NCBI GenBank assembly: GCA_002269645.1
Contig: NIVC01002009.1
Coordinates: forward strand, 31,127 to 95,126
Source of the DNA: Macrostomum lignano
Taxonomy: Eukaryota
DNA length: 64,000 nucleotides
Direction of reading: 5' to 3'
Position 1 is the first letter of the stretch. Each line of letters opens with the position of its first letter. The notes below the pieces were generated by a model. It searched no databases, was not told where the DNA came from, and worked only from the letters and a program-made list of their open reading frames with translations. A program made the translations under genes and the position numbers. Positions 22,108-48,089 of this stretch are shown piece by piece.

Positions 22108-23450
22108 ATGTACCGCCTGTACAGACAGGTGCCAGTCGCGGGCCGCTACCTGCTGCTGTGCCTGTACCTGTGCCTGTGGGTGTTCGCCCTCTTCAACTAC
22201 AGCAGCAGGTGCCGCTACTCGCAGCCGGACGTCTTCATTGAAGACTGGCCAGCCGACGACTCAAGGCTGAAGTCGGGCCGCTGTTACCTGCGGCGGGACA
22301 GCCTCCAGCTGCAGCCAATAGATATGCATAATGCACCTGAGCTGCATCATCTAGAGACTGCTCTGGCTGGTCCCGAAGTTCCGGCACAGATGAGGTTGCG
22401 TCCTGGCGGAAGCTGGGCTCCATCAAACTGCACCCCACTGCAACACGTAGCCGTGATGGTGGCCTTCAGGAATCGGGACTTTCACTTGCGGCTGCTGCTG
22501 AACCGGCTGCATCGGATGCTGAGAAGGCAGCTGATCAAGTACACTGTGTTTGTGGTTGAGCAGGTGAGTAATGCGTTAAGCAGTAACTTGAGCAGTTGAG
22601 CAGGCAGTTAAGCAGTGAGTTGAGCAGTGAGCTGTGAATTGAGCAGGTGAGCAGGCAGTTGAGCACTGTGTTTCAGCACGTAAACAGACTTAAGCAGATA
22701 GAGGCAGCTTCTAAAATCTACCCAGCCTCTGTGCCCCATCACCCAGACCGGACCGGAGCCCTTCAACCGAGGCATGCTGATGAACGTTGGCGTGGTGGAG
22801 GCCCTGAAGCTGGCCAGCTTTGACTGCTTCATCTTCCACGATGTGGACATGATTCCCGAGCACGATCGGAATGTGTACCTGTGCGATGAGAACGCCAGGC
22901 ACCTGGCATCCGCCATTGACGAGATGCGGTATCACGTGATGTTCTACAACTACCTCGGCGCTGTGCTGGGTGAGTAGCTATGCCGATATGTATCGTTTGA
23001 CGTGTTGTTAGTAAGCGGGATTAAAACCAGTTCTCTTCCCATCGGTCGTGTGCAGCGATGAGCAGCAAGAACTTCTTCCGCATCAACGGCTTCTCCAACG
23101 TGTACTGGGGCTGGGGCAACGAGGACGACGACATCAGCGCCCGCACGATGGAGGCCGGCATGCTGGTGTCCCGTCCGCCGCCCACCCTCGGCCGCTACAA
23201 GATGGTGCGCCACCCCAAGGCCGTCCGCATCGAGAGCGGCAACGAGTACTTCATGGCCTGGCGGGCCAGGCACTATGAGGACGGGCTGAACGCGCTGAGC
23301 AGGGCCTCGTACTCAGTGCTGAGTCGCCAGGCGATGCCTTTGTACACAAACATCTCCGTGCGGCTGTCCCGCCAGCGGCATCGAATAACGCCCGAGTGGC
23401 TGTCCAACTCGGACTCCGTATGGTGGTTTCTGCGATTCTACTATCCATAG
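22108..23450 (+). CDS. GT7-family beta-1,4-galactosyltransferase-like, copy 1
   Basis: Exons 22108-22563, 22747-22969 and 23056-23450. Type II TM segment (YLLLCLYLCLWVFALF). Motifs VAFRNRDFHL, EQTGPEPFNRGMLMNVG, FIFHDVD, INGFSNVYWGWGNEDDD and MVRH. Confidence 0.9.
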
Positions 23451-29714: not shown

Positions 29715-31054
29715 ATGCGCGTCTGCTGGCACATGTCTGTCGCGGGCCGCTACCTGCTGCTGTGCCTGTACCTGTGCCTGTGGGTGTTCGCCCTCTTCAA
29801 CTACAGCAGCAGGTGCCGCTACTCGCAGCCGGACGTCTTCATTGAAGACTGGCCAGCCGACGACTCAAGGCTGAAGTCGGGCCGCTGTTACCTGCGGCGG
29901 GACAGCCTCCAGCTGCAGCCAATAGATATGCATAATGCACCTGAGCTGCATCATCTAGAGACTGCTCTGGCTGGTCCCGAAGTTCCGGCACAGATGAGGT
30001 TGCGTCCTGGCGGAAGCTGGGCTCCATCAAACTGCACCCCACTGCAACACGTAGCCGTGATGGTGGCCTTCAGGAATCGGGACTTTCACTTGCGGCTGCT
30101 GCTGAACCGGCTGCATCGGATGCTGAGAAGGCAGCTGATCAAGTACACTGTGTTTGTGGTTGAGCAGGTGAGTAATGCGTTAAGCAGTAACTTGAGCAGT
30201 TGAGCAGGCAGTTAAGCAGTGAGTTGAGCAGTGAGCTGTGAATTGAGCAGGTGAGCAGGCAGTTGAGCACTGTGTTTCAGCACGTAAACAGACTTAAGCA
30301 GATAGAGGCAGCTTCTAAAATCTACCCAGCCTCTGTGCCCCATCACCCAGACCGGACCGGAGCCCTTCAACCGAGGCATGCTGATGAACGTTGGCGTGGT
30401 GGAGGCCCTGAAGCTGGCCAGCTTTGACTGCTTCATCTTCCACGATGTGGACATGATTCCCGAGCACGATCGGAATGTGTACCTGTGCGATGAGAACGCC
30501 AGGCACCTGGCATCCGCCATTGACGAGATGCGGTATCACGTGATGTTCTACAACTACCTCGGCGCTGTGCTGGGTGAGTAGCTATGCCGATATGTATCGT
30601 TTGACGTGTTGTTAGTAAGCGGGATTAAAACCAGTTCTCTTCCCATCGGTCGTGTGCAGCGATGAGCAGCAAGAACTTCTTCCGCATCAACGGCTTCTCC
30701 AACGTGTACTGGGGCTGGGGCAACGAGGACGACGACATCAGCGCCCGCACGATGGAGGCCGGCATGCTGGTGTCCCGTCCGCCGCCCACCCTCGGCCGCT
30801 ACAAGATGGTGCGCCACCCCAAGGCCGTCCGCATCGAGAGCGGCAACGAGTACTTCATGGCCTGGCGGGCCAGGCACTATGAGGACGGGCTGAACGCGCT
30901 GAGCAGGGCCTCGTACTCAGTGCTGAGTCGCCAGGCGATGCCTTTGTACACAAACATCTCCGTGCGGCTGTCCCGCCAGCGGCATCGAATAACGCCCGAG
31001 TGGCTGTCCAACTCGGACTCCGTATGGTGGTTTCTGCGATTCTACTATCCATAG
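29715..31054 (+). CDS. GT7-family beta-1,4-galactosyltransferase-like, copy 2
   Basis: Exons 29715 (or 29733)-30167, 30351-30573 and 30660-31054. From VAGRY onward the protein is identical to copy 1, with a constant 7604-bp offset. Confidence 0.9.
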
Positions 31055-34576: not shown

Positions 34577-36520
34577 CCAGGTCCAGTGGCGGATTAGGGG
34601 GGGGGGCGCATAGGGCAGGGCGCACGCCCCCATCGAGTTAGATTTTTATATATGGAAAATGCACATTATCATGTAGCGATTATTTTCAGAATCCGTCTTG
34701 TCAGCACTCATTTTAGCGCCGCAGGCACTCATTCAGGCACTCATTTTAGCGTCGCATGCACTCATTTTAGCGTCGCATGCACTCATTTTAGCGTCGCATG
34801 CACTCATTTTAGCGTCGCATGCACTCATTTTAGCGCCGCAGGCACTCATTTTGGCGCTGAAGGCGCTGTTTTGTCGCCCTGCAGCAAAATGCATTCATGC
34901 AAAGCAGCAAAAATAAAAAATAAGCAAAAAGTCTACATTTTAAATTTAAAATGTGGAGGGGTCAGATACCATTACTGCCCCCCCCCATTTTAAAAAGTGG
35001 GGGGCATGGCCCCACTGTCCACACCTTCCTAAGCCTATGAGTGTACTTTCTTAACTTTGAATCTGCTGCACATCGACACAGAGGGATAATTTTTGTTATT
35101 TCTTCAAATTGATGGTCTATTCAACAGCAGGAATGCCAAGCCACTTTTCCGCCCGTCGAACTACCAAGAGGGGGAATCCCCCCAGACAATTTTTTTGCTG
35201 CGCCGGAACGGAGCAACGCAGGCACACGGAATTCGAGAACACGGGCTAACTTTTTGTTGCGCACATTCTCAAACAAGAATCAAGTCGCCAGCCCTCCGGA
35301 CCGTCGAGATATTCGACGATTCTGCTAGAAGGTCGGATTTTTCCCATAAGCGCTAGTGTATTCAGTACACCCCTGTGCGCCAATCAGCACTGCGCCTCAG
35401 TGCAGCCTTGCCAAGCCTCCAAATTTTATCAGCACGTCGACCACATGTGTCTGCATCAGCTCTGGCTTCGTTAGTCACTGGCCTTCACCGAGACGGAGCT
35501 TCTAGACCTTCAACAGGTGGCACCACGTGACTATGAACACCCTGATGCGAATTTCTAGAGTTTTGCTGATCAAGCCTCGACAGTGGGCAAAATTCAACTG
35601 CTAGGTATCCTCAGCTAGTCTCTCGAGCATTCCGTCATCACCCGGACGCCGTCGGCACCTTCAACAGATTACAGCAGGTGACTATGGACACCTTGATGCG
35701 AATTTCTATAGTTTCGCCGATCAAGCCTCGACAGTGGGAAAGCCTCAACTGCTGGACATCCTCAGCTAGTCTCTCGAGCATTCCGTCACCACCCCGACGC
35801 CGTCGGCTCCTTCAACAGATGACACCAGGTGACTATAGACACGCTGTTGTGAATTTCTTTGATGTCGCTCACCAGCATCAATAATGGACAAACTTTCATT
35901 TCTGGTCGTTCTCAACTAGACTCTCAAATAGTCTATCATCACCAGACATGATTAAGTAAACGTGATGACGTAATTTGTTAATTACACTGTAAATTGAACA
36001 GAATCTTCGCGAAGAAAAAAATACTAGAAATTATCCAATTTTCTGTGTGGAATGAATATCAATTCATAATATACTGAATCTCTAGTCTTCTGTCCTAAAA
36101 GTTGCTAAAATTGTTTAAAATAAAAAAATCATCTCTTTTGGGTGTTTATAGTCGGTTTCGTCTCCTTGAAGGTGCCGACGACGGCAGAATGACAACCGGA
36201 TGCTTGAAAAACTAGTTGAGGATACCTACCAGTAGAGGTTTGCCCATTATTGAAGATTGATTAGAACAATCTAACATATTTGCAACAGGATGTTCATAAT
36301 CACCTGGTGTAATCTGTTGAAAGTGCCGATGGCGTCGGGGTGATGATGGAATGCTTGAGAGACTAGCTGAGGATGTCCAGCAGTTGAGGCTTTCTCACTG
36401 TCGAGGTCGAGGCCTGATCGGCGAAACTAGAGAAATTCGCATCAGGGTGTTCATACGAGCTAGTCACCTCGTGCCACCCGTTGAAGGTCCAGAAGCTCCG
36501 CCTGGGAGAAGGCTAGTGAC

Positions 36521-37223
36521 TGTTGTGTCTCGGCCTAATGGCCGCTGGACGGGTCAAGGTTCGGGCCCTCCCCGCCTGAGACACCCCTGTCCCAGCCCTC
36601 ACCCCGGCTATTCCTACCCTGTCTCGCTCGGTTCGGCGAGAGTTCGCCTGACCGAACACCCTGGGATCGGCGAGAGTTCACCGTTCCCAGGTCCCTGCAG
36701 ATCCCGGCCCCACGCGGCAACCCAGAAGAACGAAAGCTCGAGCTCACCTCCTCTTGATATATCGAGTTACTAACGAAGCGTTTATTGGCCCGAAGCAGTT
36801 ATTGGCACGCGAAGGCAGAGGTACGCCGATGAACGCAAAAACAGTAAGAACGAAGCGGACACCAATAGAGAGCCACGTGGAGCGCAGCCCGCTCAGGGCT
36901 AGCATTTAAATAATACACAAAAAAGGGGGAAGGGGGGGGCAGACTGGAGACGGCGAGCCAAACCCTGGGGCCCAGCCGGCTTATCAGCCAGCCAGCCAAT
37001 ACGAGCAGCCCCAGGGTGAGGCGGGCAACGAGGGAGGGGGGGGGTCGGCACCCAGATTGGACAGAGATTGGGCCGGGGCTGGGTGCAAAGGGCTAGGCCA
37101 GGGTTGAGACTTACGCCTCTCACAAACCCTGGCCCGGGCGCGAGACGGGGGACGGGGCGGGGTGGCATGAAAACTGAAAACAAAAGTACGAGTACATACA
37201 CACTGGAAGGGCGCAGCCCAACA
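36521..37223 (-). repeat. 3' LTR of the Gypsy element
   Basis: Matches 44461-45163; the only differences seen are two G-run lengths. Minus-strand AATAAA at ~36781-36786. Confidence 0.97.
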
Positions 37224-37235
37224 TCCTCCCCCTCC
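37224..37235 (-). other. Polypurine tract
   Basis: ggagggggagga on the minus strand, abutting the 3' LTR. Confidence 0.9.
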
Positions 37236-37462: not shown

Positions 37463-38137
37463 CTACAATCGGCCAAAAAATCTACTACAGTTGGTCGCAA
37501 ACAGTCGAGTCCAGTACCTGCGATCACATTCACTGTCCGCTAGGGCTTCCGGCACGAACTTGATGGCTGTCGGGTCCTTGGGGTCTCCACCAAACGGTGC
37601 GGCCGATGTCACTAGCAGGCGCTGCCGCGGGAGACGCTTAGCCCGTTGGACCGCTCGCGGGGATCCTCGGCACCGAGCGGACACCTCGAAGAAGACCCCG
37701 TGGCACTTGCTCACCAGCGCGGCCTCGACGGCCTCCGGCAAGTCCAGGTCCTCGGCCAGCATGACGCTCATCGTTTGAAACTCCGGCTGCCGGAGGAATC
37801 CTAGGGCGACCGCCCAGGCAGGTTCGCCGCCTTCAACTCGGAACAAAACCGGCAGGCCGAACTCCTTGGCAAGCAAGAACTGCTCCATCGCCGCCGTTAA
37901 CTGGTCCTGGCGCTGCGACCTCTCAGCGTCCCAATTGAGCTCGACTTCGCCGACCGCCACGACACGCGGCCAGCTACCCGCTAGAAATCGTCGTACATCG
38001 TCTCGCAGCGATGGCCACCACGGTGCAGCACTGGCCTTCAGGCCCAGGGCGAACACGATCCGTCGGTCTTGCAGCAGTGGTCGGACACGGGACATTCTAG
38101 ACGCAGGCAGTACGGCGAGTTTACAGCCGCTAGACAT
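37463..38137 (-). CDS. TatD-like (amidohydrolase TIM-barrel) domain, apparently lacking most metal ligands; Gypsy cargo
   Basis: Matches to the TatD consensus (recalled): IVFALGLK ~ VYAAVGIHP, VVAVGEVELNW ~ VVAIGEIGLDY, QFLLAKEFGLPVLF ~ QLELAKELNLPVII, RLPRQRLLVTSAAPF ~ KIPLDRLLLETDAPY, TNCSRFFG ~ ENARRLF. The N-terminal strand LVDAKAYL (~LIDSHCHL) lies in the overlapping upstream frame. Confidence 0.75.
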   Translation of the reverse strand: MSSGCKLAVLPASRMSRVRPLLQDRRIVFALGLKASAAPWWPSLRDDVRRFLAGSWPRVVAVGEVELNWDAERSQRQDQLTAAMEQFLLAKEFGLPVLFRVEGGEPAWAVALGFLRQPEFQTMSVMLAEDLDLPEAVEAALVSKCHGVFFEVSARCRGSPRAVQRAKRLPRQRLLVTSAAPFGGDPKDPTAIKFVPEALADSECDRRYWTRLFATNCSRFFGRL

Positions 38138-38769
38138 CGACGCACGCCACGAAGGTCCTCGGGCTGAATCGACCGGCCCAGCCTCGTTAGGTATGCCTTT
38201 GCATCGACGAGACGCTTAGCCGAGCTGACCTTGCGCTGATTCGGGTCGTCACGGGGGGAGACCTCCTGGACCGTGTCGGCCGGTCGTACTTGCTCGGGGT
38301 CGACACCCGTTAACTCTTCGGTCGCCAAGTCGCGCTGGGCCGTCAGCGGAGTCTGCGAAAGGTGCGGCCCGTCACTCCCCTCCTCCGGGCGCCGCGCGAG
38401 GCCAGGATCCACTAAGAGAGACAGACCCCGGAGCCTCCCCAACAAGGGACCCCCCAACTCACACAGCTCAAAACCCCGCACAGCCAACAACACGCACTCA
38501 AACGCCGCCTGCAGCACCGAAGGCGGGACCCTCCGACACCTCCCGGAGCCACCACCAGAACCTCTCTTCCGCCCATACTGATTGCACAGAAACGACACAG
38601 ACACTGCTAAGAATCTAGACAACTGCTCAGGCACACTCACACCAGCCCCATCAAGAAACCTCGCCACCTCCTGAACCACCAGGCAAGCTCCTTCACTATC
38701 CCCAGCCCTCAACCGCGCCAGCAGCGCACCCCTCAGCCGCCTACACTCAGCAAGCGCAGCCGGAGCCAA
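38038..38769 (-). CDS. Gypsy cargo ORF, unknown helical region that ends with the TatD N-terminal strand
   Basis: 243-aa ORF with the frame open from ~38822. No signal peptide or clear TM segment. Probably fused to the neighbouring ORFs. Confidence 0.55.
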   Translation of the reverse strand: MAPAALAECRRLRGALLARLRAGDSEGACLVVQEVARFLDGAGVSVPEQLSRFLAVSVSFLCNQYGRKRGSGGGSGRCRRVPPSVLQAAFECVLLAVRGFELCELGGPLLGRLRGLSLLVDPGLARRPEEGSDGPHLSQTPLTAQRDLATEELTGVDPEQVRPADTVQEVSPRDDPNQRKVSSAKRLVDAKAYLTRLGRSIQPEDLRGVRRCLAAVNSPYCLRLECPVSDHCCKTDGSCSPWA

Positions 38770-38896
38770 TAACTCGGCTGGGATCTCCGCGTGAACTGGA
38801 GCTTCCCTGCGGCGCTTCCCTTAAGACTAGCCAAAGCTAACCTGACCTGCTCGGGCAACTCAACGTCAGGGGGAGGATTGAAAAAGTAGGCGTACT

Positions 38897-39136
38897 TTAA
38901 CACCCCTTGACACGCTGCCTCCCAACCCGATCGTATACTTCCCGAAACACTGGGTCAGATAAAACGCACATCGCCATCACGTCTCGCTGAGACTCCGGAG
39001 ACTCTACCTCGGCAGGACAGACGCGGGGCCGCTTTGAGTACAGACGACTACACGCTGCCTCAATCTCCGCAGAGTTAGCAGTCCGACCCACGCCTAACAC
39101 GCCATACAAATCAGTCGGTGTCGTTGGCGACGACAT
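38897..39136 (-). CDS. J-domain-like module without HPD; Gypsy cargo
   Basis: DLYGVLGVGRTANSAEIEAA...VLSDPVFREVYDRVG matches both ends of the DnaJ J-domain consensus (DYYEILGV..A...EIK.A...VLSDP..R..YD..G). The HPD position reads KRPR. Acceptor-like ttgcag| lies 7 nt upstream of the ATG. Confidence 0.65.
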   Translation of the reverse strand: MSSPTTPTDLYGVLGVGRTANSAEIEAACSRLYSKRPRVCPAEVESPESQRDVMAMCVLSDPVFREVYDRVGRQRVKGC

Positions 39137-39436
39137 GGTCCTCCTGCAATGATGACATTTAAACCCAATCACTACCTATGCCTTGCGGACTAGCAACTGT
39201 GACCCTGACCTGACCCATCCTATGACATGTTTATTTTACAATACGATTGAGAACGCTTCTTGCCTAGCATACTTTGTAATTTTAATACATTTAATGTTTT
39301 TTACGTGCTTTCCATGCGTTCCATTTTATGATTTTTTTGTGCTTTGGGGTTGTATCATTTTTTTCATTTTAGGTTATTTTAGGCTTTCTACCATAGACAA
39401 CAGCGTGGAGGCATTAATACAAGTGCATATTAAAAA

Positions 39437-42400
39437 TCAATTTATGACGACCGCCTTGTGAGCCCACTGCGAATTAACGATACAATACCGGATTCCCGTA
39501 ATACGCTGGGGCACACCCCGACGCTCGCGCAGTCTGCGCGGAGACACGGCTGGCGCCGCTGGAGCCACCGGTGCGCATGGCGCAACTGGCGTTCCCGGCC
39601 CTACTATCCCATGCCGAGGCCCAACGGCAACTGGTGGCACCACATACGAGTAAAACTCCTCCTCCTCCTCAAGTTCCGGCTCTTTAGTCGCCGGCCCCGC
39701 GGGCTCCTGTCTGCACCCTGCCGGCTCAGGCGGATGCGCCGACCGGCGCTGCACTGCCGTATGCCTATTCATCAACCTGAACTGCTCAGGCCGCTCGGGT
39801 ACTTTTCGCAAATTATTATAATGCACTATTTTGCTCTTTCCCCTATTGGCGTGCTTTACCCGGTAATTCAAATCGGATATCTTCTCTAACACCTTCGCCG
39901 GCCCCTTCCAATTGCAATGGAACTTGGCTGCCTCCCCTGCCTGCAGCGCAGGCGAGTATTCTAGGACGGCATCCCCACTTCTATGGCCGGGCCTCGCACC
40001 CTTGAGTCGTACAGCACTTTCTGTTTCCTCTGGTACTGCTGCAGGTTGGTCCGCACCTGCGAATGAGCCTCAGCCAGACTATTACCTAATGACTGAACAT
40101 ACGCCGGAGCACTGGCAGGAATGGACTCAGGCAAGGTTCCGATGTCCACTGGAAGCCGCATCTCCCTGGCGTACAGCATGTAGTACGGGGTGTACCCCGT
40201 GCCTCTGTGAACGCTGCTACGGTACGCCATGAGAGACGGGTGGATCAGATCCTCCCAGTCTCCTTCGCCCACCGACTCACTCATCCTGCACTTGATCATT
40301 GACTTCAACGTCTTATTGAAACTCTCAGCCTGACCATCAGCCATCGGGTGATAGGAGGACGTTCTGCATTTCTTAACGGCAAGCAACCGACACAACTGCT
40401 TCATCAAAGCCGACTCAAAATTGGTGCCCTTATCGGTGACTAGAAATTCAGGACAACCAAAGTGCGCAATCCAGTGATCAAAAATCGCTCGCGCCACCGT
40501 CGGGGCTCGCTGATTCGACAAGGGCACCGCCACCGGCCACTTAGTAAAAGAATCCTGGATTGTCAGCACGAATCGATTGCCACCTCTGGACTTGGGCAAC
40601 GGCCCGACAATGTCACTCATGATCCTCTGGAAAGCTCCTTCCGAGCAGATTGGCTGCAAAGGCGCCCGGTTGCTGCGCCCAGGCTTCGCCTTCGCACAGT
40701 GGACACAGCTCCGGCAATACTCTTCCACGGAACGACTCAGCCCCGGCCACCAGTATCTCGCCTTCACTTTCTCTTGTGTCTTCCTAACCCCAAGGTGCCC
40801 TCCTGCAACCCCATCATGAAGCTCACTGAGCACTTTCGGCAGCAAAGCCGGCGGCAGCAAGATCTTTTTCTGGCACCCACTCCCGGGACTCTGAAAATAC
40901 AACAGATCAGACTCTACTCTTATCAGCTGCCGTTGTGCCCACAGCACACGCTCCTCCCACGACATCACTCTAGGCGCACTGGGGTTCGAACCCGGGTCCA
41001 GGGCATAGGAGCGGACAGCTGCAAGCTTCTTCTCGGCCACTTGCGCCTGCTGGACTTCCTTCGAAGACAGCCCACTGCCAAACACCGCGTTCACTACTGG
41101 CACATTCTCGCTAAACTGGCAGCTAGGGCAGCTCTCATGGCCAGCGTGTTTTCGGTACTTGCGAGACAGCGAATCAGCGTTGCCGTGCTCCTTGCCTGGC
41201 CTGTGAATGATCTCAAAGTCGAAGTTCTGGAGCGACTCAAGCCACCTTGCGCACTGACCCTCTACGTCCTTCAGACTGGCTAGCCACTGCAAAGCTTTGT
41301 GGTCTGAACGAACAGTGAACTTTCTACCTAACAAATAGTACCTATACTTTTTGACGAAGTGCACGACGGCAAGCAACTCTAACCTGGTGGTGCAATAATT
41401 TTTCTCCGCCGCATGAATCATCCTAGACCCGTAAGCGATCACCTTCTCACGGCCATCTGCTTGACGCTGTGACAGGACGGCTCCCAGCCCGACGCGCGAA
41501 CTGGCGTCCGTGTCGAGGATGAACTCCCCGGCACCAGGCGAAAAATCCGGGAATGCCATCACATTCGGTGAACACAAAGCGTCTTTCAGCCTGCAAAACG
41601 AGCTCTCCTCTTCACTACCCCACTCAAACTTCACTCCGTCTGCGGTTAACCTATACAGCGGCGCTGCAATCTCTGAAAACTGCGGGATAAATGACTGATA
41701 GTAGGCGCACGTACCCAGGAATGCCTGCACCTTCTTGGCGCTACATGGCCTCGGCCAATTCTGGATCTCCTCGCACTTGCTCGGATCCGTTGCGATCCCC
41801 TCCTGAGAGACGATGTGGCCCAGAAACTTCACCCGCTCTGCGAGGAACACACACTTGGCGGGCTTCAGCTTGACATTGGCATCCCTCAGGCACTGGAAAA
41901 CATGCTTCAATCGCTCGAGATGCTGACCCACCGACTTGGCGAACACGACTATATCGTCAAAGTACACCAGGCACTCCTTCCAGTTAACCTCAGACAGGGC
42001 CATAGACATTAGCCTGGCGAACGTAGCGGGAGCATTGCGCAAGCCAAAACTCATGCACTTCCAGGCGAACTGACCCCTGTTGGGTACCACGAACGCCGTT
42101 TTCAACTGGTCCTTCGGCTCAATCGGGCACTGATGATAGCCGGAGGCCAGATCCATCGTCGAGAAAACACAGTTCCCTCCTAGCGCATCAAGCGTCTCGT
42201 CCATCCGCGGCGGTGGGTAAGGATCTGGCACTGTGACCTCGTTAAGGCGCCGATAGTCTAGACACAACCTCAAGCTACCGTCGGCCTTTTTAACCGGCAC
42301 GATCGGGCTCGCCCACGGAGAGTAGCAGGGATAGATGCGATCCTGCTGCAACAACTCATCAACCTGCTTATCAATTTCCTCCTTCCAGCGCGGTGGAATC

Positions 42401-43410
42401 CTACGCGCGGGCTGACTTACTGGCTTGGCGTTGCCGGTGTCAATCTCATGCGCCATCAAGTGTGACTGTCCCAACTCCGAGCTATCCCTGGCAAAGACAT
42501 CACGATTCCGAGCCATCAGGCGCTCAAACTCGTGCTTCTCATCGCCCGTCAGGCCACATCCTCCCCACTCCTTGACATCGCTGAGGGGGTTCCAGTCGTC
42601 TCGGACACTCTCCACCGAGTTCACCTGCCACCCAGCTGGCTGCTGGGCCGCCACTGGGGAGAACCAACCAATTCGGCTTCCCTTCCTTAATGACAGACTG
42701 CATCCTGACGTGTTCAACACCCTGACAGCCAAGCGACCGTCCCCGTCAGGCATCTGTACCGATCTGGCCACCATCTGCTCGTTACTCACTCTCCTCTCAG
42801 ACTCCACAATGCCTAGGAACTGAACCCCAGAGGGAACCCTTCTCTGCAACCTGACGTGCACCACCTTCTCTTGACCTGCATTGAACTGCTCAGGCTGACT
42901 CAGCACCAGACGGCAAAGACGCGGCTTATCTGCTGATAAGCGAAACGGATACACACAGGATGCAGTCTGCAAGCAATTCCTAGCAAAGTCAATCGCCATC
43001 CCGTGTCTCACGAAAAAGTCAGTGCCCAGAATACATGCCACAGCCAGTTCCTCGACCACAGCGAACTCGTGCAAAAACTCGGTGTCCCCAACAGAAAACT
43101 TCATCGTCACCATTCCATGTACAGCAATCGGTTCCCCATTGGCAGCGAAAACGGAAAAATTCGGCAAATTCGGCGATAAGTCAATGTCGGCTTTTCTAGA
43201 CTTCAGGAAACGGTTGCTTAACAACGACACGGTGGCCCCGCTGTCCAGCAGACATGCAATCGGGGGCCCAAACCTAAACTGTGCATCCACATAGCCCAGT
43301 CCCTGCCGACTCAGCACACTCTGGGACAAGGCCGCGGCCCCCGATGCACCCGGATTCACTGACGCTGGGGCCCGGACGGGTGCCCCGGCCGAGCCCCCAA
43401 TCCGTTTCCC
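39437..43410 (-). CDS. pol: Gypsy Pol polyprotein (protease, RT, RNase H, integrase)
   Basis: Motifs LLDSGAT, YFDD, DTDAS, HHCC (H..GGHLG, C..C), DIVGP...DKGTNF...AESFN. One -1 break at ~39970 falls in a G run; restoring it gives VGDAVLEYSP...WKGPAKVLEKISDLNYRV through to 39437. Confidence 0.96.
43346..43410 (-). other. -1 ribosomal frameshift signal: G GGA AAC plus H-type pseudoknot
   Basis: Slippery heptamer 43410-43404 in gag frame SGN, 6-nt spacer, stem 1 GGGGCTCGG/CCGGGCCCC, stem 2 GCACCCG/CGGGTGC. Pol is in the -1 frame. Confidence 0.85.
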
Positions 43411-44336
43411 GAACCCGACTGGTCCCACCGACGATAGCAGCGGTTGCGCATGTGCCCTGACTGGCCACACTCCCGGCAGACCACTGCATTACGGCACCGA
43501 GCCGTAGTATGCCCTGTCTGCAGGCACCGACCACACTGCCTCTGCTGCTGACTCTGCTCAGGGGCTCGATGCTGCAAGCTCACTTTTGGCTGCTCAGACC
43601 TTGCTGTCGCCATCGGCGCAGTGGGCGCTGCAGCACTTGCTTTTAGCTGAGCCACTTCCGCTTTCAGAGTTGCTATCTCGGCGGCTGCCCTGGACTCCTG
43701 GCTGTTGCCAGCCGCTGCGGCCTGACCCCCCACCATGTGCACAGCTCGCTTACCCTCGGGCTCCATCAGAGCCAACGATGCCCTCACTTGACGCACCCGC
43801 CTAATAGCGTCCTGGAGCGTCTCTGGCGCTTGCAGCAGCACGCTCTCCAGCACCCGGGCTGGCACCCGAATCCCCTTCAAAAACCTGTCTTTCACCAACT
43901 CTTCTCGCTGGGCCGCTGGCAGCATTGGGTACGATTTTCTCATAAGCTCCTTGAGCACGTCTGCATATTCTTCAATGGGCTCGCCATCTTTCTGATTCCT
44001 ACTCTGGAACTCGGTCTTGTAATCTTGAGCAGTCCTATTCTCATCAAACCTAGCTTCTAGCTGCTCAACAAACTCATCATACGGCAAATCATCGGCCAAC
44101 TCAAGATTCGCAACAGCCTTAAAAGCAGTATTAAAGTCAAGCAGACTGAGCAGCGCCTGCTTGCGCTGATCCCCTAGAATATGAGCCGCCTCACAATACC
44201 CTGTGAATTGTTGCATCCAAAGGGCAAAGTCCTGTGTGGGCACGTACTTATTTGGCCTCGGCACCCGCTGTGCCACATTAAGTTCGTTTTGCAGACGCGC
44301 CGTCAGGGCGTCAATCAGATCGTCTAAATTGGCCAT
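43356..44336 (-). CDS. gag: Gypsy Gag with two CCHC zinc knuckles
   Basis: ATG at 44336 (MANLDDLIDAL). Knuckles CGRCLQTGHTTARC and CRECGQSGHMRNRC. Capsid-like RNQKDGEPIEEY...L motif. Confidence 0.93.
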   Translation of the reverse strand: MANLDDLIDALTARLQNELNVAQRVPRPNKYVPTQDFALWMQQFTGYCEAAHILGDQRKQALLSLLDFNTAFKAVANLELADDLPYDEFVEQLEARFDENRTAQDYKTEFQSRNQKDGEPIEEYADVLKELMRKSYPMLPAAQREELVKDRFLKGIRVPARVLESVLLQAPETLQDAIRRVRQVRASLALMEPEGKRAVHMVGGQAAAAGNSQESRAAAEIATLKAEVAQLKASAAAPTAPMATARSEQPKVSLQHRAPEQSQQQRQCGRCLQTGHTTARCRNAVVCRECGQSGHMRNRCYRRWDQSGSGNGLGARPGHPSGPQRQ

Positions 44337-44440: not shown

Positions 44441-44458
44441 ATCCTGGTCACGGCACCA
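44441..44458 (-). other. Primer-binding site, tRNA-His
   Basis: TGGTGCCGTGACCAGGAT starts 2 nt inside the 5' LTR boundary. It is complementary to the invertebrate tRNA-His 3' end ATCCTGGTCACGGCA-CCA (recalled). Confidence 0.9.
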
Positions 44459-44460
44459 CT

Positions 44461-45163
44461 TGTTGTGTCTCGGCCTAATGGCCGCTGGACGGGTCAAGGT
44501 TCGGGCCCTCCCCGCCTGAGACACCCCTGTCCCAGCCCTCACCCCGGCTATTCCTACCCTGTCTCGCTCGGTTCGGCGAGAGTTCGCCTGACCGAACACC
44601 CTGGGATCGGCGAGAGTTCACCGTTCCCAGGTCCCTGCAGATCCCGGCCCCACGCGGCAACCCAGAAGAACGAAAGCTCGAGCTCACCTCCTCTTGATAT
44701 ATCGAGTTACTAACGAAGCGTTTATTGGCCCGAAGCAGTTATTGGCACGCGAAGGCAGAGGTACGCCGATGAACGCAAAAACAGTAAGAACGAAGCGGAC
44801 ACCAATAGAGAGCCACGTGGAGCGCAGCCCGCTCAGGGCTAGCATTTAAATAATACACAAAAAAGGGGGAAGGGGGGGCAGACTGGAGACGGCGAGCCAA
44901 ACCCTGGGGCCCAGCCGGCTTATCAGCCAGCCAGCCAATACGAGCAGCCCCAGGGTGAGGCGGGCAACGAGGGAGGGGGGGGGGTCGGCACCCAGATTGG
45001 ACAGAGATTGGGCCGGGGCTGGGTGCAAAGGGCTAGGCCAGGGTTGAGACTTACGCCTCTCACAAACCCTGGCCCGGGCGCGAGACGGGGGACGGGGCGG
45101 GGTGGCATGAAAACTGAAAACAAAAGTACGAGTACATACACACTGGAAGGGCGCAGCCCAACA
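44461..45163 (-). repeat. 5' LTR of the Gypsy element
   Basis: 703 bp, TG...CA, direct repeat of 36521-37223. Confidence 0.97.
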
Positions 45164-46713
45164 TGACCAACGAAGTCAGAGCTGATGCAGACACATGTGG
45201 TTGACGTGCTGATGAAATTTGGAGACTTGGCAAGGCTGCACTGAGGCGCAGTGCTGATTGGCGCACAGGGGTGTACTGAATACACTATAGCGCTTATGGG
45301 AAAAATCCGACCTTCTAGCAGAATCGTCGAATATCTCGACGGTCCGGAGGGCTGGGGCGACTTGATTCTTGTTTGAGAATGTGCGCAACAAAAAGCTAGC
45401 CCGTGTTCTCGAATTTCGTGTGCCTGCGTTGCTCCGTTCCGGTGCAGCAAAAAATTGTCAGGGGGGTGGAAATTCCCCCCCCTCTCTTGGTAGTTCTACT
45501 GTTAATATCAAAGTTCATATCAGGCCTAAACAGCTTTGCTCAGCCTGTAAATGAACGCTTCAATTAAGAAACTTTTTTATTGAAAATTATACAATTATAC
45601 GTGTGAAACAAAAAATCTTTAGACAAACAATACATGGCTCTTTGCATTGTGTATCAAATACTTCAAAATCGCTTCTACGTATGCTTACTCGCAAGTAGCC
45701 CATCGCTTATACGCGTACATCTAACATGTACGAGTATCCTACTGAAGGCACCTGGCACAGTGCCGGCTGTCATAAAAACCTTAAATTTTAAATATCCAAT
45801 TAAGTGATATTTTGCACTCCAAATATAACTTGAGAAGCTATACAAGCGTATATGGTCATTCTAAATAGCCGAATTAAACTTTAAATGAAAATGTTGTTTA
45901 TAGCCTTTCTGGTACCAATTTTGAATTCTACTCGTACCATCATCCCGTTCGGTGCACGCGGCACCTCATTTTGCATATGCTTCAATTATTTCAATAATTC
46001 TGCTCTGTTCTCTCTGCACAGCAGCAGTATTTCAAGCTTTCTACATATCTGTTCGATAGCTCGATGCCTCGCAATGGTTTGACGCGATTCAAAACATTTC
46101 TGTCGCATGAGTCTTTTTGTCAGCTTGCTTCTTGCAACGGCCCACACAAGGCTCGGCATGTTTAGAAGCGTCTAGCAGAATGCACTGCCTGTCTCCCATT
46201 GATGAAACAGAGCTCTCTTATTGGTCCGTAGCCTCACAATTGCAACTGTAAAACTATATTTTTATTTAAAAAGAAACAGAAGAAACAACGGCCCCGTCTT
46301 TCCATATAGCGCTTCAAAACCGAGATCGTATTTTCTATTCGAGTTGACCGTGTCAAAGGCAGGTAAGTCTATTGTACGCATGACAGCATGCAGAGTTCCA
46401 AACCTTTTGCTGCCCATTTTTCAACAAGTTATCCGTGTTGAATACTAAGCAAATCTATATAACTAAATCTATCTTTGCTAAAGTCTGGAGGCAGGGCTGG
46501 CGTCTTGTCTCCTGTCTGAGAGGTGAGGAACAGTAAGTGATCCCGTATCCTTGTGGCAGCACAAAAATTGACAGACAAAGGTAAAGTACATGTACGCACC
46601 TGTGTACTGAATCTGATGTGTGGCAAATGCCCCCCCCCATCCAAACCGTCAGAAAACGAAGCTGAACTCTGCCCTTGCCGTGCTGCAAGTCAAGCGAAGC
46701 TCTTTACCCCGCC

Positions 46714-48089
46714 ATGTTCTGCCGCGGGTACCCGATACGCGTCAGCAGGCACATGTCTGTCGCGGGCCGCTACCTGCTGCTGTGCCTGTACCTGTGCCTG
46801 TGGGTGTTTGCCCTCTTCAACTACAGCAGCAGGTGCCGCTACTCAGAGCCGGACGTCTTCATTGAAGACTGGCCAGTCGACGACTCCAGGCTGAAGTCGG
46901 GCCGCTGTTACCTGCGGCGGGACAGCCTCCAGCTGCAGCCAATAGATATGCATAATGCACCTGAGCTGCATCATCTGGAGACTGCTCTGGCTGGTCCCGA
47001 AGTTCCGGCACAGATGAGGTTGCGTCCTGGCGGAAGCTGGGCTCCATCAAACTGTACCCCACTGCAACACGTAGCCGTGATGGTGGCCTTCAGGAATCGG
47101 GACTTTCACTTGCGGCTGCTGCTGAACCGGCTGCATCGGATGCTGAGAAGGCAGCTGATCAAGTACACTGTGTTTGTGGTTGAGCAGGTGAGCAATGCGT
47201 TAAGCAGTAACTTGAGCAGGTGAGCAGTCATTTGAGCAGGCAGCTGATCAAGTACACTGTGTTTGTGGTTGAGCAGGTGAGCAATGAAGTTAAGAATTAA
47301 GAAGTAAGTTCAGCAGTTCAGCAGGTGAGCAGTGAGTTGAGCAGGTAAAGAGGCAGCTTTTAAAATCTTCTCTGCCGCATCACCCAGACAGGACCGGAGC
47401 CCTTCAACCGAGGCATGCTGATAAATGTTGGCGTGGTGGAGGCACTGAAGCTGGCCAGCTTTGACTGCTTCGTCTTCCACGATGTGGACATGATTCCCGA
47501 GCACGATCGGAATGTGTACCTGTGCGATGAGAACGCCAGGCACCTGGCATCCGCCATTGACGAGATGCGGTATCACGTGATGTTCTACAACTACCTCGGC
47601 GCTGTGCTGGGTGAGTAGCTATGCCGATATGTATGGTTTTGACGTGTTAGTAAGCGGGATTAAAAGCAGTTCTCTTCCCATCGGTTGTGTGCAGCGATGA
47701 GCAGCAAGAACTTCTTCCGCATCAACGGCTTCTCCAACGTGTACTGGGGCTGGGGCAACGAGGACGACGACATCAGCGCCCGCACGATGGAGGCCGGCAT
47801 GCTGGTGTCCCGTCCGCCGCCCGCCCTCGGCCGCTACAAGATGGTGCGCCACCCCAAGGCCGTCCGCATCGAGGGCGGGTACACGCACTTTATGGCCTGG
47901 CGGGCCAGGCACTATGAGGACGGGCTGAACGCGCTCAGAAAGAACTCGTACACGATCGTCAGTCGCCAGGCGATGCCTTTGTACACAAACATCTCAGTGC
48001 GGCTGTCGCTCTCCCGGCACCAGATGAAGCAGGAGTGGCTGTCAAAAACAGACTCCGTTTGGTGGTTTCTACGATTCTATTATCCGTAG
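46714..48089 (+). CDS. GT7-family beta-1,4-galactosyltransferase-like, copy 3 (diverged C-terminus)
   Basis: Exons 46714 (or 46753)-47187, 47388-47610 and 47695-48089. Same motifs and intron positions as copies 1 and 2. Confidence 0.9.

Follow-up and report, generated by a model that had tools for sequence, protein, structure and literature searches.

A J-domain gene in the third-ORF position of a branch of Ty3/Gypsy retrotransposons of the flatworm Macrostomum lignano

Errantiviruses carry env at the position of a third open reading frame. Beyond gag and pol, LTR retrotransposons of animals are not generally known to encode more than an env or one small accessory ORF, and proteins serving counter-defence or the recruitment of host chaperones have rarely been documented in them. 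Outside the retroelements, polyomaviruses encode J domains and hijack Hsp70, whose stimulation requires the HPD motif of the J domain (passages of PMC13254874). The element described here shares with errantiviruses and env-bearing Ty3/Gypsy elements a third sense ORF (ORF3) between pol and the polypurine tract, with an acceptor-like site before it. It differs from errantiviruses in that ORF3 encodes soluble J, helical and TatD parts without a transmembrane-like segment, and in that its reverse transcriptase (RT) falls beside Gmr1/Osvaldo, in a tree holding no errantivirus row.

The DNA analyzed (the window, 64,000 nucleotides of the M. lignano genome) contains a complete, young Ty3/Gypsy LTR retrotransposon on the minus strand, whose near-identical LTRs, aligned over 705 columns, differ by 2 one-base gaps and show 0 mismatches. 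The LTRs, target-site duplication, primer-binding site, polypurine tract, gag and pol bear out the coordinates and the type of element given in a preliminary description of this DNA. Its central claim, that a third ORF other than env lies between pol and the polypurine tract, with J-domain and TatD homology and no transmembrane-like segment, holds as well. From the 5' end of the element, its parts are:

45164..45167: 4-bp target-site duplication, upstream copy (the same 4 bases stand beside both LTRs)
44461..45163, minus strand: 5' LTR, 703 nt, TG...CA, with TATA-like and AATAAA motifs
near 44687, minus strand: donor-like AG/GTGAG inside the 5' LTR
44441..44458, minus strand: primer-binding site, complementary to the 3' end of host tRNA-His(GTG)
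43356..44336, minus strand: gag (Pfam Retrotrans_gag, CCHC knuckles)
43404..43410, minus strand: GGGAAAC slippery-type heptamer in the gag-pol overlap
39437..43488, minus strand: pol, order PR-RT-RH-IN (Pfam), with a frame break near 39970
39137..39436, minus strand: spacer between pol and ORF3, 300 nt, 64% A+T, with three AATAAA/ATTAAA hexamers
AG at 39145-39144, minus strand: acceptor-like TTGCAG closing the spacer, 7 nt before the ORF3 ATG
37463..39136, minus strand: ORF3, 558 aa in open copies (ATG at 39136, stop at 37463)
38930..39112, minus strand: J domain, ORF3 residues 9-69, HPD replaced in the window's family
38407..38763, minus strand: basic five-helix domain, ORF3 residues ~126-244, common to all ORF3 families
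37466..38220, minus strand: TatD-type TIM barrel, ORF3 residues ~307-558, most catalytic residues gone
37224..37235, minus strand: polypurine tract
36521..37223, minus strand: 3' LTR
36517..36520: 4-bp target-site duplication, downstream copy

Within the primer-binding site, a 15-nt complement corresponds to the 3' end of a tRNA-His predicted by ARAGORN in another host locus (L130), and the heptamer at 43404..43410 is presumably the site of gag-pol frameshifting. Inverted arms that are 96-100% alike lie outside the element at some distance (35191-35477 and 45164-45454), and the insertion seems to have hit the margin of a foldback resembling a MITE; further inverted repeats occupy 35506-36455. 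Elsewhere, the window holds three copies, 95-100% alike, of one segment (22114-23305, 29718-30909 and 46666-48089), the frames of which we take to resemble beta-1,4-galactosyltransferase.

A search of the genome with the DNA of the cassette yielded 27 matches, 19 of them spanning nearly the whole 2181-nt query, and in 10 of the 20 fetched loci of the window's element family (hereafter family A) ORF3 was a single open frame of 558-562 aa. The cassette is thus not a one-off insertion, and its expected presence in other full-length copies is borne out. Most near-full matches carry 0-4 substitutions, and M. lignano gene models are 98% identical to the cassette; primers and an LTR motif published for this species likewise match the genome searched. 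In the window copy, the ORF3 frame is broken near 38920, 38805 and 38086 and that of pol near 39970, breaks that this copy has alone or shares with few others; compared to one open copy, the window shows 1 substitution and three one-base length differences, at the same three ORF3 positions. Other copies vary in length at the same few sites, and of the 35 one-base differences 14 fall in runs of at least 3 bases (background 14%). Contigs assembled from public data (four runs, each from a separate study) also disagree with the window, at two of the break sites in all four cases and at the third in two of the four listed. Judging from these comparisons, the frame breaks of the window copy are probably assembly errors.

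Pfam searches with pieces of the window ORF3 returned DnaJ at E 4.9e-5 and TatD_DNase at E 5.7e-6, each falling slightly short of its curated cut-off, and no family for the middle piece. The J domain of family A scores 23.8 bits (cut-off 27.8) and matches DNAJB13 in the PDB (E 6e-5), while DnaJ is found at 48-65 bits, above the Pfam cut-off, in seven sister families. The HPD motif is intact in 7 of 8 families, with RPD in its place in one family B copy, and is absent only in family A, which for this reason is not to be filed as a working J-protein of Hsp40 class C. In that family, the J domain is followed by a family-specific proline-rich motif and then by a helix.

The helical domain (115 aa) was aligned over nine rows at 24-50% identity, is basic in net charge in all nine and was modeled as five helices with a pLDDT of 92. 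No Pfam family matched more than one of the nine rows and no PDB sequence match fell below E 0.02; Foldseek searches of PDB and BFVD gave no match at E 0.001 and no viral fusogen. The best VIA hits, cobalamin-cap-like bundles (Z 8.6), lie within the noise for helical bundles. J-proteins of the DnaJ-X type (PF14308; Djp1/Caj1) resemble ORF3 in having a helical domain after the J domain, with an Atlas feature score of 0.76 (lead level 0.9), but PF14308 matched none of the nine rows and nothing in the genome, and the element domain measures 115 aa versus 203.

An AlphaFold2 model of an open ORF3 copy, computed from an input alignment that included bacterial TatD rows, reached a mean pLDDT of 65.8, with the barrel mostly at 80-95 and residues 243-346 below 50. 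In Foldseek the modeled barrel matched TatD structures at E 5.7e-6, in VIA it was superposed on them with an rmsd of 2.5 over 204 residues (Z 20.6), and a profile from four element rows alone retrieved 12 TatD chains from the PDB (best E 7e-9), confirming at the level of model and profile that this part of ORF3 adopts a TatD TIM-barrel fold. The J-domain and TatD homologies first proposed from the sequence alone are therefore both upheld. The element barrel shares the fold (Z 20.6-17.5), the GE motif and a remnant of the HxH strand with TatD nucleases (E. coli TatD, YcfH and YjjV; human TATDN1/3), but is fused to J and helical domains in a retrotransposon and has five of the six catalytic or ligand positions replaced. 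The sole survivor is E91, kept in 4 of 4 rows of the joint TatD alignment by sequence alignment. The H62 position is occupied by Lys or Arg in 3 of 3 rows, that of H127 by Arg in three rows and Gln in one, those of H152, E201 and D203 by small neutral residues in all covering rows, and at most one His is left in the HxH strand. Since E91A, E201A and D203A mutants of E. coli TatD are inactive and H62A is much reduced (sections of PMC4176340; residue roles in human paralogues are treated in parts of PMC10085689), replacement of catalytic positions leads us to predict that the barrel is nuclease-dead. The basic side chains that replace two of the ligands would suit phosphate binding, and fit a barrel that holds nucleic-acid ends without cutting.

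Host TATDN1-like and TATDN3-like exons have kept their catalytic motifs. As to a possible donor of the barrel, bacterial YcfH-type proteins scored 44-56 bits and host exon pieces 5-12 bits, in a comparison where the query itself had selected the bacterial set and the host sequences were fragments; further scores were 38.9 for S. aureus, 29.0 for TATDN3 and 25.8 for TATDN1. No 19-residue window exceeded a Kyte-Doolittle value of 1.49 in the ORF3 proteins scanned (n=7), and the statement that the cargo has no transmembrane segment is thus sustained by hydropathy, a criterion distinct from signal-peptide prediction.

Protein searches of the genome revealed diverged ORF3 relatives (33-39% identity), mostly 3' of pol inside LTRs; pol was present at 11 of 18 fetched diverged loci, the other seven being truncated. 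Searching with the J part of one diverged relative listed 148 matches, several of them in multi-copy sets, and the 20 loci fetched thereafter included 14 with pol upstream and two ordinary host J genes. At least eight families, with pol 43-55% identical, carry a J domain, an acidic linker and the 115-aa five-helix domain. Over eight families the open ORF3 frames range from 283 to 562 aa, at 24-50% identity, those of the J and helical families without TatD measuring 283-328 aa from the first Met. The TatD barrel is restricted to one sub-branch. A chromodomain was found in family H only (L088, L089), at ORF3 residues 151-201 between the J and helical domains (Chromo, E 1.4e-12), unlike in chromoviruses, where it sits at the integrase C-terminus; two of its three aromatic-cage positions appear to be kept. 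The constant core consists of the J and helical domains, and TatD is a later addition in one sub-branch. Among the matches listed, an RT row was read by eye upstream of the J match in 22 of 23 cases for family I and 17 of 21 for family H, and ORF3 elements occupy on the order of 100 assembly loci, a figure that is not a copy number because the assembly is redundant and only matches listed are counted.

Some loci depart from this layout. In L099:2164-5460, annotated publicly as one protein (P0019), ORF3 is fused in frame to RNase H, without integrase, and we read this locus as a deletion derivative of family F. A P-loop frame (GPPGVGKT), presumably SF3-helicase-like, is inserted in a decayed ORF3 copy (L066:8143-8668 on the oriented strand, and L065) and is possibly a virus-derived or Helitron-like insertion. 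Five J-domain matches lie inside very long open frames of up to 1449 aa (C575:335814, C3488:57828 and 89405, C1744:6568, C1901:447), which may represent a host gene or another repeat.

The evolutionary position of these families was assessed with a tree built from 21 RT-RNase H rows and rooted on two long outgroup branches. Left out of it were L081 (partial RT), L092 (its RT seems to come from a different nested element) and the interrupted loci L108, L110, L111, L113-L119, L121 and L126. The ORF3 families formed one clade (96/97), within which the TatD-bearing families made up a sub-clade (100/98). Their sister group (95/96) comprised six rows, including the published Gmr1/Osvaldo family Mlig-id38, none of which gave a J, helical or TatD match. 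The RT placement is away from the Mag and CsRN1 anchors, Gmr1/Osvaldo being anchored by one published family only. Mlig-id38 (PMC12801592) resembles the window's element in its genome of residence and its layout of LTR, gag and pol, and belongs to the group sister to the ORF3 clade, but gave no match to the J, helical and TatD parts and has a different LTR. The simplest order of events is that an ORF3 of J and helical domains was gained at the base, followed by TatD in one branch, the chromodomain in one family and loss of HPD in family A. The best explanation of the whole is that ORF3 was gained once by a Gmr1/Osvaldo-related branch of Ty3/Gypsy and kept under selection. The preliminary description had both folds lacking their key motifs, which stands for TatD and, for the J domain, holds in the window's family only: since HPD was lost late, in one family, the cassette is first of all that of a J-protein with an intact Hsp70-stimulating motif and not a double pseudo-enzyme.

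Elements of A2, B2 and D have lost ORF3 or keep it in truncated form. Family A2 (L109, L112), the closest RT relative of family A (80%), has LTRs 98.7-98.9% alike, an open pol in L109 and no detectable J, helical or TatD part. Its ORF3 position is taken up by unrelated GC-rich sequence in which open frames of 247 and 141 aa overlap (L109:3450-4193, L112:3569-4192); the idea of an ORF3 remnant in this family found no support (BLASTP E 2.2). Subfamily B2 (L059-L061, L127) has LTRs more than 99% alike and an open pol, and all that is left of its ORF3 is a 181-aa C-terminal part of the barrel. Because these A2 and B2 elements are young and have no full ORF3, the gene is accessory and dispensable in cis.

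Selection on ORF3 was evaluated by counting methods on natural open frames. A dN/dS ratio near 1 had been named at the outset as evidence against a captured and repurposed accessory protein; among family A variants the ratio is 0.28-0.33 (Fisher p 6e-5 and 1e-5) and thus below 1. Family B gave 0.19-0.28 (p 0.0009 and 0.002), the comparison of families B and C 0.06-0.13 with dS near saturation, and pN/pS is 0.27 in family G and 0.28 in family F; one family C pair stands at 0.81 (10 changes) and family I at a pN/pS of 1.28 (5 changes). Within family A the helical part is constrained (p 0.0007 and 0.003), and constraint is not significant for the TatD part alone (p 0.22 and 0.065) or for the J part compared to L017 (p 0.29). 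These substitution patterns support purifying selection on ORF3.

In all 8 families the J motif is preceded, at a distance of 1-31 nt, by a YAG, which belongs to a TTGCAG in five and directly adjoins an ATG in three; family C has no in-frame ATG and so asks for an upstream exon. The splicing to an acceptor near 39143 that had been anticipated was not observed: in contigs from four public runs, which span the entire element, neither a joint between LTR and ORF3 nor a break at 39143 appears, three of these runs being RNA by guess only and contigs dropping rare forms. None of the runs listed for the element is on record as RNA. Automatic gene models with an in-frame intron (P0004/P0005) or an LTR-to-ORF3 join (P0007) were not seen in these contigs either and were set aside. 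In M. lignano, 30% of genes are trans-spliced and the host spliced leader (SL) ends in ATG (parts of PMC8629364). SL trans-splicing is a possible second route to a putative ORF3 message, SL-supplied starts fitting only 3 of 8 families because exon phases differ among families. A heat-shock link was rejected as well for the TatD branch: seven LTRs of its elements contained no heat-shock element with at most 1 mismatch, unlike the heat-inducible LTR families of M. lignano (PMC12801592), and the LTR is unlike that of Mlig-id38.

We tentatively prefer, with somewhat less than even confidence, the reading that ORF3 encodes a modular accessory protein that would recruit Hsp70 and aim it, in the nucleus, at chromatin or nucleic acid, be it host silencing complexes or the cDNA-integrase complex. 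ORF3 would be produced from a subgenomic RNA through the acceptor before its start, and its HPD-bearing J domain would stimulate host Hsp70. The basic helical domain, whose targeting role is a guess, might together with an optional module (chromodomain or nuclease-dead TatD) direct this activity to chromatin or nucleic acid, where host silencing complexes would be loosened, or the element's own cDNA-integrase complex remodeled and shielded, much as polyomavirus T antigens work. The HPD-less family of the window could act as a binder or decoy without Hsp70 stimulation or lean on sister families in trans. T antigens resemble ORF3 in combining an HPD-bearing J domain at the N-terminus with a part for targeting, putative in ORF3, and in the working proposed here (passages of PMC13254874), but no homology was found beyond J, the helical domain having been searched with Foldseek, ORF3 has no helicase or origin-binding part, and an RNA retroelement is set against a DNA virus. 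The larger picture seems to us rather unlikely in its entirety. It would be a T-antigen-like retrotransposon system in which a J adaptor aims Hsp70 at chromatin or DNA via exchangeable modules (chromodomain, nuclease-dead TatD barrel and a helical domain of novel fold), dismantling silencing or shielding cDNA, with expression by env-like subgenomic RNA or SL trans-splicing, and with families coexisting in three roles, the active ones as helpers, those without HPD as decoys and those without ORF3 as free riders.

Alternatively, ORF3 may be a co-chaperone dedicated to the cytoplasmic particle, bringing Hsp70 to Gag or Gag-Pol so as to assist in particle assembly, in the folding of RT or in uncoating; its helical domain would bind Gag and the added domains would be secondary. 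Reverse-transcribing particles need chaperones, and both the conservation of HPD in seven families out of eight and the constant J and helical core fit such a role. We nevertheless hold it unlikely, as both add-on modules are chromatin or nucleic-acid folds, close relatives with an open pol do without ORF3, and the window's own successful family has no HPD. A third reading, that ORF3 titrates host Hsp70/J-protein or TatD-partner factors (e.g. Piwi/Argonaute loaders) without remodeling them, with the window's form as its end point, would account for a HPD-less family that is young and numerous (19 near-full matches, most with 0-4 substitutions) and whose helical part stays constrained. It has a precedent in pseudo-J proteins such as Pam16, which inhibit their active partners (passages of PMC13254874). 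Retention of HPD over deep divergence in most families goes beyond what a pure decoy would need, however, and makes this account improbable.

That captured host or bacterial gene fragments are carried along neutrally would agree with the loss or truncation of ORF3 in A2, B2 and D, but is very improbable given open frames of 283-562 aa in eight families that share 24-50% identity, a dN/dS far below 1 and a conserved acceptor-like site. Equally hard to credit is a substitute for env mediating spread between cells, e.g. from soma or neoblast to germ line, for although position and acceptor mimic env and the elements are young and multi-copy, the seven proteins scanned have no hydrophobic segment above 1.49, the helical domain matches no viral fusogen, and all recognizable domains are intracellular.

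Outside the species, a word-index search with the whole protein, in libraries poor in flatworm genomes, found no homolog at E 0.001. A search with representatives gave 12 matches, namely three M. lignano gene models, one Logan fragment and otherwise ordinary TatD or DnaJ proteins. The Logan fragment (P0006, 166 aa) is 51% identical to the window barrel, is not among the matches listed for the M. lignano genome and may come from a related species. Profile searches returned three bacterial TatD proteins and two M. lignano models, scans of viral and metagenome contigs with the TatD alignment returned nothing, and the ESM Atlas gave no usable match to the whole ORF3 protein. The published literature searched, a body distinct from Repbase, Dfam, GyDB and the 2020 classification, showed no description of a J/TatD ORF3 in LTR retrotransposons, so that the suspected novelty stands within that scope. 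The main text of PMC12801592, on M. lignano LTR elements, does not mention DnaJ, TatD, HSP40, ORF3 or J-domain, and 10.1101/2023.10.26.564294 and PMC10468722 mention neither DnaJ nor TatD. The 137 families that have been catalogued by RT probably include those treated here. The ORF3 cargo is thus real, selected and apparently undescribed, in a known kind of element.

A J gene selected across a whole clade, with swappable chromatin or nucleic-acid modules, would be a parallel among retroelements to the J-proteins of viruses. M. lignano is a tractable model in this respect, with RNAi, transgenesis and a stem-cell biology, and its element families, which differ in the presence of HPD, of TatD and of ORF3 itself, are natural controls. 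Furthermore, a sizeable share of the J-domain matches in this genome is transposon cargo, with consequences for the counting of Hsp40 genes and for heat-shock transcriptomics in M. lignano.
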